A stretch of DNA of 64,000 bases, from NCBI GenBank assembly GCA_963733035.1, contig CAVTBU010000005.1, forward strand, positions 2,208,001-2,272,000, given 5' to 3'. The stretch is from Pirellulales bacterium. GTDB taxonomy: Bacteria; Planctomycetota; Planctomycetia; Pirellulales; PALSA-1355. The position numbers were made by a program. Below, in pieces: positions 27,001 through 33,000 of the stretch; the first letter of the stretch is position 1, and every line of letters begins with the position of its first letter.

Positions 27001-30000
27001 CGCCGTCGGCAATTCCCAACTCTGTCTTGACGGCTTGGATGGCGTTCATGAATCGCCTGGCATCGCGTGGGTAGCCGGCGGTCGGTGCCAACTCTGCAAC
27101 GCGACCGCACCAGTAGTCGTTGAACGCACGCATTGCCAATTCGCGGAGGTACTTCGAAGTCATCGACGCCAGTGCCGTCGGCAAGAACGACTCACCTCCC
27201 ATACGAAACCGCACGTCGGTGCGCGTTTCGGGGGGGCCCCAACGATAGACGCTCTCGCGCAGGCCCTCGCCGTGCACCTCCACCAGTACGTCGGGAAACT
27301 CCTGCTGCAACAGCCGGCCGTATTGGTTGCGGCCGCCGTGCTTATCGCACACGACCAGCACGGGTTCGTCCTGACATTGCTGCAAGGCGGCGGAAACGAG
27401 GCTCAGTGTGGTCTTGGAGAGCGTCTCGGACTTGTTGCCGAGCGTGGCGGTCGACCGATTGAACTCATCCGGAAACACGGCGCGGCTCTGGAGCGCGATC
27501 AAACGCACGCCCAACTGCTCGAACGAGCGACGCAGCTTTTTTACGAGTTTCGTGAGTTCTTCCGGATCGGCGGCCAGTGGCAGGCGAAGATCGTAATCGA
27601 CGTGCCAGGGAACTTTGGGCAAATCGTCGACCGACGGTGGATCGAGCAACTGCCAAACGTCAAGCCAATCGGTCGGGCAATGATTCACCAGCGACAGGGC
27701 CGCCAGCACACCACGTTCGAGATGCTTGATGCCGGTCGCCGGCGAATAAAGAATCTTGGAGTCAGCGATCGGCAATCGCTGCAATCGGCTGCCGCGACGG
27801 GGAGGCGCCTTGCACACCACGCTTTTGAGGTGCTGATAGAGGTCCTGTTGTGCGTGTGGTCCGTCCACCCACCACACCGAAGCGGAGACGACGAGCGGCC
27901 CCAGGTTCGGCGCGTATCCGGCTTCGTCGGTTCCAATTAGATAGGGCATCGAATTCCCTCCATGACAGCCGTCCGCAAACTCGCGAGCCATGCCGGGCCT
28001 GCCGCAGTATACCAATTGCCGCGAGCAACCATCAAATTGCGTCCGATTCGTGGCCGTATCGACCGAACGGCCTGCCCTGTATTCGTCGAAGTTGCGGCGT
28101 GTTAGGATAGAAATTTCGACCTCCCCTGCCGTTTCGCTCGCGCCTTGCGACCTGTACCCTCCCAGGAGTGCTTCCATGCGTTGGTTGGCAACATTGACCT
28201 TGCTGCTGCTATGTACCGCACGAGCCGATGGCGATGCCATGGAGCGTCTGCGGCCGGAAAAGCTGCGGGCTACGCACGAGAAGATCGAAGCCCTCAGGAA
28301 CCAGCGCCGCGAAGTAAGCTTGTCAAGCGGCTACGACGACATAAGGGCGCTGTTGCATGTCCACTCGGCCTTCTCACACGACAGCCGCGGAACCATCGAG
28401 GAGATTGTGGAGGCAGCCAAGCAGACCGGCGTCCGCGTGATCCTGTTTAGCGAACATCCTGCGGGCCACTACGACTACGTCAACGATGGGCATCGCGGCA
28501 TGAACGACGGCGTGCTGTTGATCCCCGGTGCCGAAACCGGCGGCTTTCTGGCCTATCCGAAAACCAGCATCCAAGACCAGAAAACCGATTCACCCCAGGC
28601 ACTGGCCGACCTGGTCGGTTCGACGGGCGGCCAAATCTTCTTGTGCCATCTCGAAGAGCGGATGGATTGGGAGATCGACGGAATGACCGGCAGCGAGATA
28701 TACAACACGCATGCCGACTTCAAAGACGAGCCAAAATTCCTGGCAGCACTCCGCTCGCCGCTCACGATGCTGACGTTGATGGGGGCGGTCAAACAGTATC
28801 CGCAGGAAGTGTTCGGGGCGCTGCTGGACTATCCGGCCGACTACCTGGCCCGTTACGACCAGCTCTGCCAGCAGTCGCCCCTGACCGGCGTTTCGGCAAA
28901 CGACGCCCATCACAATCAGGCCTACCGTGCTACGGTGATCGAAGGTGGCAAGGTGCAGCTCGAGGACGCCCTGGGAGTCAAGCTAGCCGTGCTCGACCCG
29001 GAGAAAATCACGCCGCTGAAACTGCTCGTAAACGGTCGCAAGCCCGGCGACGTGATCCTGGACCTCGATCTGGACCCGTATGCCCGTAGCTTCCACCATG
29101 TCAGCACGCATTTGCTGTTGGCATCGGTTGACGAAGAAAGTGTCCGGCAAGCGCTCGAGGCGGGCCGCGCCTACGTGGCATTCGACTGGCTAGCCGACCC
29201 AACCGGTTTTGTCTATCGCGCCGACGCCGGCGAGAAAAACTGGCCGATCGGTAGCGAAGTATCACTGCAGGACAAGCTACAACTGCGCGCCGAAGCGCCG
29301 CTCGAAGGACGCTTCAAGTTGATCCGCAACGGCGAAGTCGTTATGGACCAGCGCGGGGCGGGGCTCAACTATGTGGTAAAGGAACCGGGCATCTATCGCG
29401 TCGAGGTCTGGCTCCCGATCGCCGGAGAAGACCGGCCCTGGATTTTGACCAATCCGATTTACGTGCGCTAGCGTCCACGCGGCCGGCGCGAAATTCTTGG
29501 AGGGGCCGCCACCGTCACCTTGTGACCCTGCGGCGGCTGGAAGACATGGAGGGGCACAAACAATCCAACGGCCACGGTTGCGACATGACGGCGATTGCTA
29601 AACTCGCTTCAAAAGCTTGCTAATCAAGTGCCCGTCGGCCAGCTTCAACGGTCGGCCCGCTGGAGTAATGAGTTCCTTGGCCGGATCGATGCCCAGCGCA
29701 GTCAACAGCGTGGCGTGTACGTCGCCGATTTGGCGCGGTTCCTCGACGTTCCGTCCTCCCTCCGGGTCGGTTGCGCCAACCACCGTTCCGCCGCGAATTG
29801 CACCGCCGGCCAACGCCATACTGAAACCACTGGGCCAATGATCGCGGCCTCCGAGGCGGTTGACCGTCGGTGTGCGACCAAACTCGCCGCCGCACAGCAC
29901 AAGCGTTTGCTCCCACAGTCCGCGCTGCTTGAGGTCGGTAATCAATGTCGCGAAAGCGGGGTCTAAAATCCCGGTCTGCCGCGCTTGAATCTCGTGATTG

Positions 30001-33000
30001 TTCGCGTGGCTGTCCCAACCCGATAGCGTTACCTCGACGCACCGCACGCCGACTTCGACCAATCGCCTCGCCGCCAGGCAACCACGACCGAACGGAGTGT
30101 CGCCGTACGCGGCGATCAATTCGGCCGGTTCTCGATGCACGTCGAACGCCTGCAGTTGTTCGCTTGTCATCATCCGCCGCGCTTCCTGCACCTGGTGGCG
30201 ATGCAGCGTGCCTTCGACGGCCACCCGGCGTCCCCGGGCAAATCCCTCCTCCAATACGTTCAAATCCGTGAGCCGTTGCTGGTAGCGGGGCAGCGAGACT
30301 CGCGCCGCAACGTCGGCGATCTTCTCGGCCGGATCGCCAACCTGGAAGGCGTCGAACTCATCGCCCAGATATCCGCCCCGGGCCGGCCATTGGCTCGGCA
30401 GAATCGAAATATGTCGCGGAATGTCGGTGCCCGCGGCGGGCAATTCGTGACAACAAATCGCGCCAATTGCCGGATGCACGGCCGTTGGATCGGGTCGGTA
30501 GCCAGTCTTCACCAGGTACGTACCCCGCTCATGATCTCCCTCTTTGCTCACCAGCGAACGTACCAGAGCAACTGAATCCATCTGCTCGGCCAACCGCGGC
30601 AAGCCGGCGGCGAGTTGCACGCCTCGCACCGCCGTCGCGACAGCCCGCGTATCGCCGGAAATGCATTTTCCCGGGTGCGGGTCGAACGTCTCCAACTGGC
30701 TCGGCCCGCCGGCCATCCAGAGAACGATGAGCGATTGTGCCTGCGGCTTTTGATGCAAACGCTGCTGGCCCTCGGCGCGGCGCGAAAGCAGTGTCGCTAT
30801 CGACGTCAGCAGTCCAGCCGTCCCCAACTTCAATATCGTGCGGCGGCTTACGTCGGAAACCGCCAAGCCGCCAGTGGCTAAGTGCTCGGGTGGAATCAAC
30901 CGCAGCAGTTGCCCTTTCTCGCCTTTCATTCTTCCGACCTCTGCCTTCGTCTCAATGGTTCCATGAGAACTCCGTGCTATTGAGTAGAGTCCATACCAGG
31001 TCGCCAACAAGCTCTTTTCGCCTGCGGCCGGTCGTGCCGTTTACGCGTTCGGAAAAGTAGCGTGCCTCGTCCGGATTTGGACGGCGAGTTAGCGTCGTCA
31101 GCAGAGCGGTTTCGATGGCCATCTCGTCGTTGGGTGCAAAGGCCGCGAGCTGGCTCGCCGCCGCGCTCAGCAGATTATCTTTCGTCTTTTCGTGCACGAT
31201 CTTGCCATTCATCAGCAGCAGTCGCTGGCGCGTCGTGCCGCCGCGAACGTCAAACTCATTGGCGCCGGCGTCTCCGTACCGTTCGATAAATTCGCGCTGC
31301 CCAATCGCTCGGCCCGCGCGAATCAGGATGTTCGATTCATAATCAATCGTCGCCAGCGACGCCGACTGCAACAGGGCGCCCACGACTTGCTCCGGCCGCA
31401 AACGCGTCAGCGGAAATACGGCCCAGTTTTGTTCGAACCGCTCGAATTCGTGGTCGCTCACGTCGCTCGTCAGGCGGCTATCGAGCCGGAATACGCGCGT
31501 GTTGGCAATCACTTCAATCAACCGCCGCCAATCGTGCCCATGGGCGGTGAAATCGTCGCTGAGGATTTCGAGTGCCTCGGGGAGCGGTCCGTCGAGGGGC
31601 AAGTCGTCGATCGGTTCGACCAACGGCCGACCAAACAACAAGGCCCAGGCCCGGTTCACGGCCAACCGAGCAAAGGCGCGATTGCCGTCGCTAGTCACCC
31701 AAGCGGCCAAGCGCTCGCGTTGATTGCCGCTGGTGGGCAAGCACTCCCTCGCAAACGGCACGGCCGGAGCCACCGTCGATGTCTCGCCAGTCTGGCGATT
31801 CTCCACGGTGAACTGCCCCGGATAGTCGCGGATGCCGCGCAGGCTTTGTCGCGTGCCTCCGAAAAATGCGGCCAACCCTTGAAAATCGCCTTGCTTCCAA
31901 TCGGCAAACGGATGGTCGTGGCATTCGGCGCAATCGAGCCGCACTCCGAGCAAGCCGCGCGCTACTCTCGCCGCCAAACGGCTGGGGTCGGGCTTGTTCT
32001 CGTCACCCGTGTTGATCGTCACGGTCACGAAGTTCACTGCCGGCGCGTCGGTCCACAAGCCGGCATCGGAAATCAGATGCCGGGCAATCGCATCGTATGG
32101 CTCGTTTGCCGCGAGTTGATCGGCCAGCCAAGAGACGAACCGCCGGCGGCGATAGAGCAAGAACGGCCCATCCTCGACACCAACATAGGCCCGTGCCAGC
32201 CGTTCCGCCATGTAGTCCGCAGAACGGGGATCGGCCAGCAATTCAGCCAGCCACGTGTCGAGTCGCTCCTGCTCAGCCAGGCTCTCGAAATGTCGCACGT
32301 CTTCGAGCGAAGGAATCGTGCCGGCCAGCGCGAGCGAAATGCGCCGCGCGACAAGTAGCTCGGGAGCCGCAGCGGCTGGCGCGATCTCGGCCCTGCGCCA
32401 TTGATCTTCGAATGCCGCGTCGACCAAGGCAGCGGCGCGGCGCACCGAGTCCAGTGAAATCTCGACCGTCGGGCGGCGCTCGGACGTCAGCGACGGGGCG
32501 ACACTGCTAACCAGTAGGCCCAGTCCGAGCAGGCAGACGCCAATGAACAATAGGTTCTTCACCCACATAGACGCACCCCGGAACCGGGTAAGAAAAGCGC
32601 GGACGCATCATTGAATTATACCGCGGCCCCCGTTGGAATCTCGCGGTCTGGCGGGAGGAGTTCCACCGCAGTTGTTCAGTTGTTGCCGCTATTTTCACCG
32701 TGCTCGTACGTATCGACGTTCGACACGTCGAGCTCGGTATTGGCCGCGGGGCCCGGCAGAACCCAGATTTCGCCGAAAAGCTGGCTCTGGTCGGTCCGTA
32801 CCTGGTGATGTCGGACCAATTCGAGCACCGCCAGAAACATCCCGATCAATGCACTTTTGTGCAGACCGGGGCGGAACAGATCGCGGAACTTCAATCGGCC
32901 CTCGTCGACGAGCCGCTGGTTGATTTGGGACATGTAGACGTGAATGGGGGTATCGTCATACACGATGTTGGATGGCTTGGCGGCCTGCGCCTCTCGCATG

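Follow-up and report, generated by a model that had tools for sequence, protein, structure and literature searches.

A PSCyt2/PSD1 and DUF1501 gene pair in a Pirellulales genome as a candidate two-component periplasmic metalloenzyme

Introduction

The DUF1501 - PSCyt1/2 - PSD1 module has been described in Planctomycetes, Verrucomicrobia and Lentisphaerae (Kamneva et al. 2012, PMC3542564; He et al. 2017, PMC5615132). The genes of these families are adjacent, the DUF1501 protein carries a twin-arginine leader, and the partner proteins contain cytochrome motifs and lectin-like modules. Publication of the adjacency dates back to 2012 (PMC3542564), and the genome-wide survey's note on this DNA acknowledged that it was in print. 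The passages of both accounts considered here leave the function of the module open and make no mention of a heterodimer, of a link to DUF1800, of a sulfatase fold or of which residue takes the nucleophile position (PMC3542564, PMC5615132). A DUF1800 - DUF1501 operon, which likewise has a helical partner gene directly upstream of DUF1501, is noted in PMC5122149.

The gene pair described here occupies positions 29598..32568 of the window, the whole 64-kb stretch of DNA that was analyzed. Judged by the published descriptions of the module, it is an ordinary member, with the same families, adjacency and twin-arginine leader, in a minimal form that lacks PSCyt1 and the lectin-like module.

Two further systems offer points of comparison. 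The type I sulfatases and the alkaline-phosphatase superfamily (sulfamidase 4miv, LtaS 2w5q, PMH 4upk, NPP 7mw8) share their core alpha/beta fold with DUF1501, which differs in being Tat-exported. In systems of the TorC-TorA type, a c-type cytochrome that is exported by Sec and anchored at its N-terminus is encoded just upstream of the catalytic subunit, which is exported by Tat; the catalytic TorA belongs to the molybdoenzymes, and TorC is a pentahaem protein of the NapC/NirT family. By analogy, the present pair would share with them the order of the genes, the use of two export routes and a proposed split of tasks between an electron carrier and a cofactor-bearing catalyst. However, the families and folds are unrelated, nothing points to quinol coupling in the present pair, and it contains one haem motif at most.

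Results and Discussion

Organization of the gene pair

The interval is filled by two co-directional minus-strand ORFs, the partner first and DUF1501 second, just as the survey's note described them (Table 1). The 538-aa partner matches the Pfam families PSCyt2 (E 2.3e-32, residues 49-240) and PSD1 (E 1.3e-26), and the 443-aa second product, which is identical to a protein already on record, matches DUF1501 (E 1.9e-101, profile positions 1-389 of 390). Alignments with orthologues cover 100% of the partner and so fix its start. The spacer shows no promoter-like or terminator-like site beyond the shuffled expectation. The pair is surrounded by ScpA, PHP, pentapeptide and sodium:solute symporter genes, and these flanking genes hold no substrate clue.

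Table 1. Coordinates of the features within the window.
Feature	Position	Strand	Basis and remarks
Partner gene PSCyt2+PSD1 (P0001)	30952..32568	-	ORF and translation; 538 aa plus stop
N-terminal hydrophobic helix, partner residues 1-23	32500..32568	-	Sequence MWVKNLLFIGVCLLGLGLLVSSV; helix at residues 2-23 in the AF2 model
CxxCHxH motif, C213-A-E-C-H-D-H219	31912..31932	-	Translation CAECHDH
PSD1 to C-terminus, residues about 283-538	30955..31722	-	hhalign against DUF1800 profile; ends E533-F-x-W-x-H538
Intergenic spacer, partner stop to DUF1501 ATG	30930..30951	-	22 nt, direct sequence reading
DUF1501 gene (P0003)	29598..30929	-	443 aa plus stop; ATG at 30929; Pfam DUF1501
Twin-arginine leader of DUF1501, residues about 25-57, R29-R30	30759..30857	-	S28-R-R-T-I-L-K-L-G
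H133 codon of DUF1501 protein	30531..30533	-	Translation KEGDHERG
Second PSCyt2/PSD1 + DUF1501 pair	8635..11819	+	ORFs, Pfam
Partner gene of second pair	8635-10317	+	Pfam PSCyt2, PSD1, weak DUF1800
DUF1501 of second pair, split by frameshift	10336-11106 and 11085-11819	+	DUF1501 in two pieces, TAT_signal

Conservation and co-divergence of the pair

The genome contains 84 DUF1501 HMM matches, merged into 68 loci of which 16 are split, and 44 PSD1 matches, merged into 38 loci. At 31 of the 38 PSD1 loci a DUF1501 gene comes next on the same strand. The counts of the survey's note (81 DUF1501 calls, 40 PSD1 calls and 24 pairs) were of the same order. The pair is also kept at 76/80 orthologous loci in other species, mostly with a spacing of -7 to +80 nt; three of the other four loci have less than 600 nt of downstream DNA, and the fourth has 881 nt without a match. 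Across 17 intact pairs the paralogue distances of the two proteins correlate with r=0.925 in a mirror-tree comparison, a value reached by 0 of 2000 permutations, and the nearest neighbor is identical in both trees for 12 of these pairs. The data support a tightly conserved unit that was duplicated as a unit and co-diverges, and the case for functional coupling of the two genes is strong. The earlier reading of each pair as one enzyme with a c-type haem subunit is supported in part: the genes are coupled, but haem c would not be the basis of the partnership, as discussed below for DUF1800.

Duplication of an operon yields mirrored trees even for proteins that make no contact. The two products might therefore be linked in function with no stable complex, either acting in successive steps or meeting only transiently, with the partner, free or tethered to the membrane, carrying electrons or binding substrate, since operon conservation and mirrored trees require co-inheritance only. 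The separate Sec and Tat export routes would fit such an arrangement. So would the outcome of a search among longer proteins for a complete natural fusion, which gave two matches, neither with PSCyt/PSD1; the one 752-aa fusion, perhaps an artefact, covers only 177 of the 390 positions of the DUF1501 profile. The orphans point the same way: as the survey's note had estimated at about half, 30 of the 54 full-length DUF1501 paralogues have no recognizable PSCyt2/PSD1 or DUF1800 ORF upstream. They retain the same active site, so that DUF1501 can presumably work without an adjacent partner. Nevertheless, a link of this loose kind is unlikely, given the one-to-one co-duplication kept over 31 pairs in one genome, the conserved unmodelled loops of the partner (see below), which are more typical of obligate partners, and the confident predicted co-fold, reported in the survey's note only.

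Fold and active site of the DUF1501 protein

The twin-arginine leader noticed earlier is present, with R29, R30 and L33 each conserved in at least 90% of the orthologues, and a crude pattern finds the RR motif in 48/54 own-genome paralogues. The AF2 model gave 76 PDB matches at E<=0.001 in Foldseek (best 2e-5, TM about 0.4), all of sulfatase, LtaS, PMH, NPP or YejM type, and hhalign against 25 own-genome sulfatases gave a probability of 93% (E 2.8e-7), in agreement with the sulfatase/alkaline-phosphatase fold proposed in the survey's note. The DUF1501 profile did not match an NPP-family alignment significantly (probability 7.5%), and a sequence search for a solved relative found none (best E 0.67). 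The active-site elements come in the sulfatase order, with the loop of strand 1 first, then the N-terminus of a helix behind strand 2, and then a strand after which an acidic residue takes the place of the sulfatase D-N/H pair. A D-x-x-A-T-x-L motif near the C-terminus is also common to both. These results support an alkaline-phosphatase-superfamily protein with a conserved polar residue at every canonical active-site position.

The invariants listed in the survey's note (H133, W305-D306-x-H308 and G361-R362-D363-H364) hold in 32 orthologues. Among the 54 paralogues, D306, H308, R352 and H364 are kept in all, and H133 and E349 in 53 each. In the DUF1800-linked DUF1501 homologues, D306, H308, E349, F350 and R352 are each found in 29/29, H364 in 28 and D363 in 27. 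H133 is the first residue of the helix after strand 120-127 in the model and is aligned by hhalign with the Cys of the sulfatase C-x-P-S-R...T-G motif, the formylglycine nucleophile; the C/S-x-P-x-R motif is absent, as noted before. By comparison with sulfatases, the active site would thus have S77 and D83 after strand 1, His133 in place of a formylglycine, Ser or Thr nucleophile, D306-x-H308, R362-D363-H364, and E349, within a Glu-Phe, where the Asp-Asn/His metal pair sits. Such a set of His, Asp, Glu and Arg suggests a His/carboxylate metal center and not a Ser/Thr/formylglycine nucleophile. The earlier label of 'Ser-type' catalysis is rejected: S77, near a metal-ligand position, is Ser in only 41/54 paralogues and is replaced by Asp in 29/29 DUF1800-linked homologues, which also lack D83. 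An Asp at position 77 would fit a metal ligand.

Sulfatases require a maturase, and in atsBA the maturase gene comes first. The sulfatase fold of DUF1501, the upstream position of the partner gene and a possible haem in its product could suggest that the partner is a periplasmic enzyme which alters a residue in the DUF1501 active site, as AtsB/FGE do in sulfatases and the di-haem MauG does in methylamine dehydrogenase. This is highly improbable. One maturase normally serves many substrates, whereas here 31 paralogues have their own co-diverging partners; the lectin-like modules of some partners point to substrate handling, and H133 stands where the target motif would be.

The partner protein

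Residues 1-23 of the partner are predicted to be either a Sec-type signal peptide or an uncleaved membrane anchor; in both cases this hydrophobic helix would route the protein via Sec and leave its bulk in the periplasm. The motif C213-x-x-C216-H217-x-H219 is kept in 32/32 orthologues, in line with the invariance reported earlier, and in 29/29 own-genome ORFs containing PSCyt2. The C-terminal E533-F-x-W-x-H538 is likewise invariant among the 32 orthologues. A second, N-terminal CxxCH occurs in 15/29 own-genome PSCyt2 paralogues and falls within PSCyt1 in all three that were scanned, one of which also has a weak Cytochrome_CBB3 match and an F5/8 type C domain. The genome encodes CcsBA, by which haem c could be attached, and TatC for Tat export.

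The AF2 models of the two proteins are of moderate quality (pLDDT 70.6 and 74.1), with poorly modelled active-site loops. The CxxCH loop of the partner has a pLDDT below 50 and no modelled secondary structure. The low-confidence loops of this protein are enriched in invariant residues (30/77 versus 77/422, Fisher p=1e-4), as would be expected if they became ordered only on a cofactor or partner. Searches with the partner model gave no cytochrome or other solved fold: the best E in Foldseek was 0.37, and the best match with VIA (Z 5.7) lay on a generic helical bundle at the C-terminus. Of the cytochrome assignment made in the survey's note, the invariant motif is confirmed.

Relationship to DUF1800

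The profile of the partner paralogues aligns with the DUF1800 profile over 215 columns (hhalign probability 95.9%, E 5.4e-9), and weak direct DUF1800 HMM matches occur on sister proteins of the partner. By profile comparison, PSD1 and the C-terminal half of DUF1800 are homologues; proteins of both families stop 3-5 residues past a conserved E-F/Y motif. No homology was found between the N-terminal halves (probability 2%). DUF1501 is next after DUF1800, its other usual partner, at 29/30 DUF1800 loci. Unlike the partner, the DUF1800 sequences contain no CxxCH (0/30), and 18/30 have an F-W-H-x-H-F motif elsewhere. Haem c would therefore be an addition, not ancestral to the DUF1501 partnership, and redox coupling through it cannot be general.

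An equally tight pairing of a CxxCH-free homologue leaves room for a different reading, in which the Cys and His residues of CxxCHxH bind a metal (Zn, Fe or Cu) or its cysteines form a redox-active disulfide, and the pair is a hydrolytic metalloenzyme with a DUF1800-like accessory or specificity subunit and no electron transfer. The missing cytochrome fold and the position of the motif in an unstructured loop are in line with it, as is the invariant His two residues past CxxCH, which lies outside the usual haem c motif. This reading is possible, if somewhat doubtful: the invariance of CxxCH in every PSCyt2-bearing ORF, the Sec routing together with CcsBA, and the second CxxCH of the larger paralogues, which makes best sense as an electron relay, all speak against it.

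Proposed explanation

We favor, with slightly better than even confidence, an operon of two genes whose products, the partner and DUF1501, make up a periplasmic two-component metalloenzyme with haem c or another metal. The first gene would supply an all-alpha PSCyt2-PSD1 protein, and the second a remodelled sulfatase/alkaline-phosphatase-fold enzyme that is folded before Tat export. The PSD1 module, common to DUF1800, would be the ancient DUF1501-associated element, docking on that protein or serving it. The CxxCHxH loop would be a later insertion that brings haem c or another metal near the DUF1501 center, and catalysis would then be linked to electron transfer. A haem-wired esterase is a reasonable, unproven hypothesis. 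The larger paralogues appear to have gained PSCyt1, a cytochrome c domain resembling class I, as well as lectin-like modules, and this combination suggests that the substrates are of glycan type and that electrons are relayed.

The second pair of the window (Table 1) has the same gene order, and its partner is 28% identical to P0001.

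The locus and its two genes

The pair is an ordinary member of a published, uncharacterised two-gene module. It encodes P0001, a PSCyt2/PSD1 protein (the partner), and P0003, the DUF1501 protein downstream of it. P0001 begins with a hydrophobic helix, MWVKNLLFIGVCLLGLGLLVSSV, as seen in the translation and in the AF2 model. PSCyt2 (PF07583) matches residues 49-240 with E 2.3e-32 (113.1 bits, gathering score 29.8). PSD1 (PF07587) matches with E 1.3e-26 (94 bits, gathering score 28.5), its best stretch being limited to profile positions 1-124 of 244, which correspond to residues 283-405. 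The DUF1501 open reading frame (ORF) is open from 31010, but the gene begins at the ATG at 30929; translated from there, the 443-aa protein is identical to one on record. DUF1501 (PF07394) spans P0003 end to end (E 1.9e-101, 340.5 bits, cut-off 27, profile positions 1-389 of 390). A spacer of 22 nt separates the partner stop from the DUF1501 ATG. No NCBIfam family names P0001 or P0003, and a promoter and terminator consensus scan at the locus gave no site exceeding the shuffled expectation. The genes around the pair encode ScpA, a histidine phosphatase, a sodium:solute symporter and proteins with a PHP domain, a VTT domain or pentapeptide repeats, and point to no pathway.

Features of the two PSCyt2-PSD1/DUF1501 pairs in the window
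Feature	Position	Strand	Basis or remark
Two-ORF unit (P0001 and P0003 genes)	29598-32568	-	ORFs fill the whole stretch
P0001 gene	30952-32568	-	ATG start, 538 aa
Motif C213-A-E-C-H-D-H219 of P0001	31912-31932	-	Translation
C-terminus of P0001, residues 533-538	30955-30972	-	
P0003 gene	29598-30929	-	443 aa
Second pair, 18 kb away	8635-11819	+	ORFs; PSCyt2/PSD1 partner and DUF1501
Sister partner of the second pair	8635-10317	+	560 aa, 28% identity to P0001, C-terminus ...E-F-x-Y-x-H
Sister DUF1501 of the second pair, two pieces by frameshift	10336-11106, 11085-11819	+	ORFs, Pfam

Kamneva et al. 2012 (PMC3542564) describe DUF1501-PSCyt1/2-PSD1 clusters with twin-arginine signals and lectin-like modules, propose a role in electron transport and give the function as unknown. 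He et al. 2017 (PMC5615132) report that PSCyt2 genes adjoin a family of unknown genes and suggest a role in carbohydrate metabolism; they, too, describe the function as unknown. Other papers note the DUF1800-DUF1501 operon (PMC5122149), give 41 as the copy number of both PSD1 and PSCyt2 in Rhodopirellula baltica (PMC2754498) or merely list DUF1800 or DUF1501 proteins without function (PMC6653060, PMC12981691). The literature search found no paper naming both DUF1501 and DUF1553. In the portions of the literature on DUF1501, DUF1553, DUF1549 and DUF1800 that could be consulted, supplements aside, a structure, complex, haem or activity was not found.

Pairing in the genome and across species

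Few gene families of unknown function have expanded in Planctomycetes and Verrucomicrobia as far as DUF1501 and the "planctomycete-specific cytochromes". The window's own genome alone (6.65 Mb, 10 contigs) has 84 DUF1501 HMM matches, which give 68 loci, 16 of them split, when fragments within 700 nt are merged as one locus. The 44 PSD1 matches give 38 loci, and PSCyt2 is matched 40 times. The 16 DUF1501 loci and six PSD1 loci that are broken into two adjacent frames represent assembly frameshifts or real pseudogenes. A same-strand DUF1501 match comes after PSD1 at 31 of the 38 loci, with a domain-to-domain gap of 229-881 nt; among the other seven, a DUF1501 lies 1562 nt downstream in one case and the gene order is reversed in another.

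The partner alignment, scanned against species-representative genomes, gave 80 loci with 49-70% identity, mostly in Pirellulales, Gemmataceae, Fimbriiglobus and Singulisphaera MAGs. At 76 of these the partner is immediately followed, on the same strand, by a DUF1501 orthologue (E<=1e-20); the stretch from the partner stop to the first aligned DUF1501 residue mostly measures -7 to +80 nt. Three of the remaining four have less than 600 nt of downstream DNA, and one has 881 nt with no match. The pairing exceeds chance. Orthologous pairs with 49-54% identity are also present in MAGs labelled Polyangia, Myxococcales and Alcaligenaceae (loci L106, L110 and L117), which reflects either gene transfer or mis-binned contigs.

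The trees of the two families mirror each other. For the 17 own-genome pairs with both genes intact, the distance correlation is r=0.925, a value reached by 0 of 2000 permutations, and the nearest neighbour is identical in both trees for 12 pairs. The pair was therefore duplicated and retained as a unit. This co-divergence, whose measurement is new in this analysis, shows co-inheritance and specific pairing, not contact.

Fold and export of the DUF1501 protein

By structure and profile comparison, P0003 has the core alpha/beta fold of the alkaline-phosphatase superfamily. Its AF2 model, built from 32 orthologues (mean pLDDT 70.6, pTM 0.69), matched 76 PDB chains at E<=0.001 in Foldseek, all from this superfamily (best E 2.2e-5, TM about 0.25-0.41), including sulfatases, the sulfamidase 4miv, LtaS, a phosphonate monoester hydrolase, NPP and YejM. 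An hhalign comparison of 54 full-length own-genome DUF1501 paralogues with 25 own-genome sulfatases gave a probability of 93% (E 2.8e-7, 399 columns); the 32-orthologue profile alone gave 74% over the C-terminal 100 columns. A sequence search for solved relatives of P0003 gave none (best E 0.67), with a local LtaS match at G-E-F-G-R. Pfam places DUF1501 in its alkaline-phosphatase clan, and assigning this fold is therefore probably no novelty.

P0003 does not qualify as a type I (formylglycine) sulfatase: it has H-E-R-G-T at the C/S-x-P-x-R position and does not match the Sulfatase HMM (PF00884) even at E<=10. The DUF1501 profile matched a 30-sequence NPP-family alignment with a probability of 7.5%, which is not significant, and a two-metal AP/NPP-type site is thus a guess from motif order.

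The twin-arginine motif of P0003, S28-R-R-T-I-L-K-L-G, is kept in the orthologues and marks the protein as a predicted Tat substrate. With a crude pattern, the RR motif was found in 48 of the 54 paralogues. TatC is encoded in the genome, and Pfam TAT_signal matches the first piece of the split sister DUF1501 gene (25.2 bits, cut-off 22.7).

Active-site residues of DUF1501

Sulfatases carry the formylglycine Cys in C-x-P-S-R, an Asp-Asn metal pair, a sulfate-binding Lys and the His of P-H-x-P. In the hhalign alignment each conserved DUF1501 motif appears to coincide with one of these active-site elements. H133 aligns to the Cys of C-x-P-S-R...L-T-G, where DUF1501 has H-E-R-G-T...K-T-G, with a posterior of about 0.6 at H133 and up to 0.9 at T-G. 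The AF2 model independently places H133 at the beginning of the helix that comes after strand 120-127, which is the nucleophile position of the superfamily. The Ser, Thr or formylglycine nucleophile of the helix N-terminus after the second core strand is hence replaced by a His, an observation new in this analysis. E349-F350 aligns to the Asp-Asn metal pair, R362-D363-H364 aligns near the sulfate-binding Lys, and D306-x-H308 comes after a strand, like the P-H-x-P His. These residues, together with R352 and D83, are conserved in nearly all 54 paralogues (D306, H308, R352 and H364 in 54; H133, E349 and R362 in 53; D83 in 52; D363 in 50).

At the sequence level the genome-wide survey's note was right, except for the label "Ser-type", which is not supported. 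The residue concerned is S77, in the sequence G-G-P-S77 after strand 1, where the alignment of this first motif to sulfatases is of low confidence. Position 77 is Ser in only 41 of the 54 paralogues (Pro in 7, Ala in 3, Thr in 2 and Asp in 1). In the 29 DUF1800-adjacent DUF1501 proteins of other Planctomycetota it is Asp without exception (G-G-x-D-G), and D83 is absent. This variability, together with the Asp of the DUF1800-linked homologues, argues that S77 occupies the place of a metal-ligand Asp and not that of the nucleophile. The same 29 proteins all keep D306, H308, E349, F350 and R352, with H364 in 28 and D363 in 27, so that D306-x-H308, E349-F-G-R352 and D363-H364 are common to the PSD1-linked and DUF1800-linked clades. 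From these alignments we infer that the conserved residues form a His/carboxylate metal centre.

The two clades differ in their first-shell residues. PSD1-linked DUF1501 proteins have G-G-P-S-[HQ]-x-[DE]-x-x-D after strand 1, and an R-S-H-F motif is found in the DUF1800-adjacent ones (loci L016-L044). The switch parallels whether or not the partner carries CxxCHxH.

The partner and its CxxCHxH motif

The AF2 model of P0001 from 32 orthologues (pLDDT 74.1, pTM 0.78) consists almost wholly of helices, apart from a small sheet at 239-266. Foldseek with the whole 538-aa model returned nothing at E<=0.001 (best E 0.37) and no cytochrome among the matches, and VIA (wide) gave a best Z of 5.7 on the generic C-terminal four-helix region 463-531, again with no cytochrome; both searches covered the whole model, in which the motif loop has a pLDDT below 50, and a match at the domain level is possible. 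A sequence search for solved relatives of P0001 found none (best E 0.54), and the best score in the ESM Atlas search, 0.80, was uninformative.

The pLDDT falls below 50 in six segments, among them the CxxCHxH loop (213-221) and the last seven residues. Invariant residues are found in these segments at twice the rate seen elsewhere in P0001 (30/77 vs 77/422, Fisher p=1e-4); the same comparison for DUF1501 gives 28/73 vs 88/307 (p=0.12). The enrichment in P0001 fits segments that become ordered only on a cofactor or a binding partner.

The CxxCHxH motif is kept in all 32 orthologues and in all 29 own-genome PSCyt2-containing ORFs; six more ORFs with PSD1 are fragments from the C-terminal side of split genes. 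In 15 of the 29 another CxxCH is present closer to the N-terminus; in the three larger paralogues scanned it sits in PSCyt1. In one of these three, PSCyt2 and PSD1 are separated by an F5/8 type C domain, and Cytochrome_CBB3 gives a weak match (E 5.9e-4, below cut-off). The genome also encodes a fused CcsBA-type cytochrome c synthase, with ResB and CcsA domains in a single 1227-aa frame (G000:C10:184773-186830, plus strand). P0001 appears to have what a c-type cytochrome needs, namely CxxCH, predicted unfolded export and a maturation system. Attachment of haem c would therefore be feasible, at a motif that is strongly constrained.

The C-terminus of P0001, E-F-S-W-N-H, is invariant in the 32 orthologues. 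This tail might slot into a pocket, which could be the DUF1501 site. Paralogues and DUF1800 proteins likewise end 3-5 residues past the E-F/Y motif.

Relation of the partner to DUF1800

The own genome has one true DUF1800 (PF08811) gene, which is followed by a DUF1501. Two PSCyt2/PSD1 proteins are also matched weakly by the DUF1800 HMM in their PSD1 regions (E 5e-5 and 8e-4). One of them is the sister partner in the window (20.6 bits, cut-off 26.1); P0001 gives no match at E<=10. On these sequence comparisons the partner is taken as related to DUF1800, and not as a member of it. A profile-profile comparison of 29 own-genome partners and 30 DUF1800 proteins of other Planctomycetota gave a probability of 95.9% (E 5.4e-9, 215 columns); the alignment begins where PSD1 begins and ends at the very C-terminus in each family. 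For PSCyt2 alone, no relation to the N-terminal half of DUF1800 could be demonstrated, with a probability of 2% and E 0.024. When the partner and DUF1800 are aligned colinearly at full length, CxxCHxH is an insertion and significance is limited to the C-terminal part.

DUF1501 directly follows DUF1800 at 29 of the 30 DUF1800 loci. CxxCH is absent from all 30 DUF1800 proteins; F-W-H-x-H-F occurs elsewhere in 18 of them. As DUF1800 is homologous to PSD1 but lacks CxxCH, the PSD1/DUF1800 C-terminal module is the element common to the two kinds of DUF1501 partner, and the haem-type motif would be a later addition. The literature searched, in the parts that could be consulted, holds no statement of this homology. 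The homology, which would set the added CxxCH loop apart from an ancestral docking module, is put forward here as new.

Meaning of the pair

The genome-wide survey's note read the pair as two halves of one enzyme, a c-type haem subunit and a sulfatase-fold subunit. The parts of this reading differ in strength. P0001 and P0003 probably act as a complex, the case for haem c on the CxxCHxH motif is evenly balanced, and a redox-coupled ester-processing enzyme is unlikely. As a whole, the haem-bearing heterodimer is a reasonable and testable hypothesis.

Several observations limit this reading. With HMMs at E<=1e-3, a PSCyt2/PSD1 ORF is upstream of 23 of the 54 full-length DUF1501 paralogues and DUF1800 is upstream of one; the 30 preceded by neither have the same conserved site. 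Database searches found no full-length natural fusion of partner and DUF1501, and a search for longer DUF1501 proteins gave two matches, neither with PSCyt/PSD1. The missing fusion is weak evidence against the two-halves reading, since Sec and Tat routing would oppose one. The database protein P0225 (752 aa) joins PSCyt2, PSD1 and the first 177 of 390 DUF1501 positions in one frame. It is probably not a true fusion, and a lost stop, a read-through or a truncated call is its probable origin.

A far-reaching proposal, which we hold to be a long shot, is that the PSCyt2-PSD1/DUF1501 pairs make up a very large and so far unrecognised class of two-subunit oxidoreductases in the periplasm. The sulfatase-fold subunit would have a His/carboxylate redox metal centre replacing the nucleophile. 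Haem c, on a loop inserted in an ancient DUF1800-like docking subunit at the interface, would pass electrons between this centre and the respiratory chain. Given the dozens of paralogues per genome and the lectin-like modules on many partners, the pairs of Planctomycetes and Verrucomicrobia would then process substituted glycans by oxidation and not by hydrolysis.

A cytochrome-coupled sulfatase-fold enzyme would be new chemistry for the superfamily and relevant to models of glycan turnover in soils and waters. The analysis narrows the question of function to the putative centre of His133, Asp306, His308, Glu349, Asp363 and His364, to the CxxCHxH loop and to the partner's invariant C-terminal tail. 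As the docking module is common to the partner and DUF1800, what is learned from the DUF1800-DUF1501 pairs of Proteobacteria, which are simpler and free of haem, should carry over.

Other gene arrangements involve DUF1501. The database protein P0242 (1471 aa) has an unusual architecture of protein-kinase, DUF1501, FGE-sulfatase (PF03781) and 3-keto-disaccharide hydrolase-like (PF06439) domains. In the own genome, a type I sulfatase gene adjoins an orphan DUF1501 on the minus strand (G000:C5:2675970-2678489), with 229 nt between the domain matches, and another sulfatase (C5:1889473-1890411) adjoins a split DUF1501.
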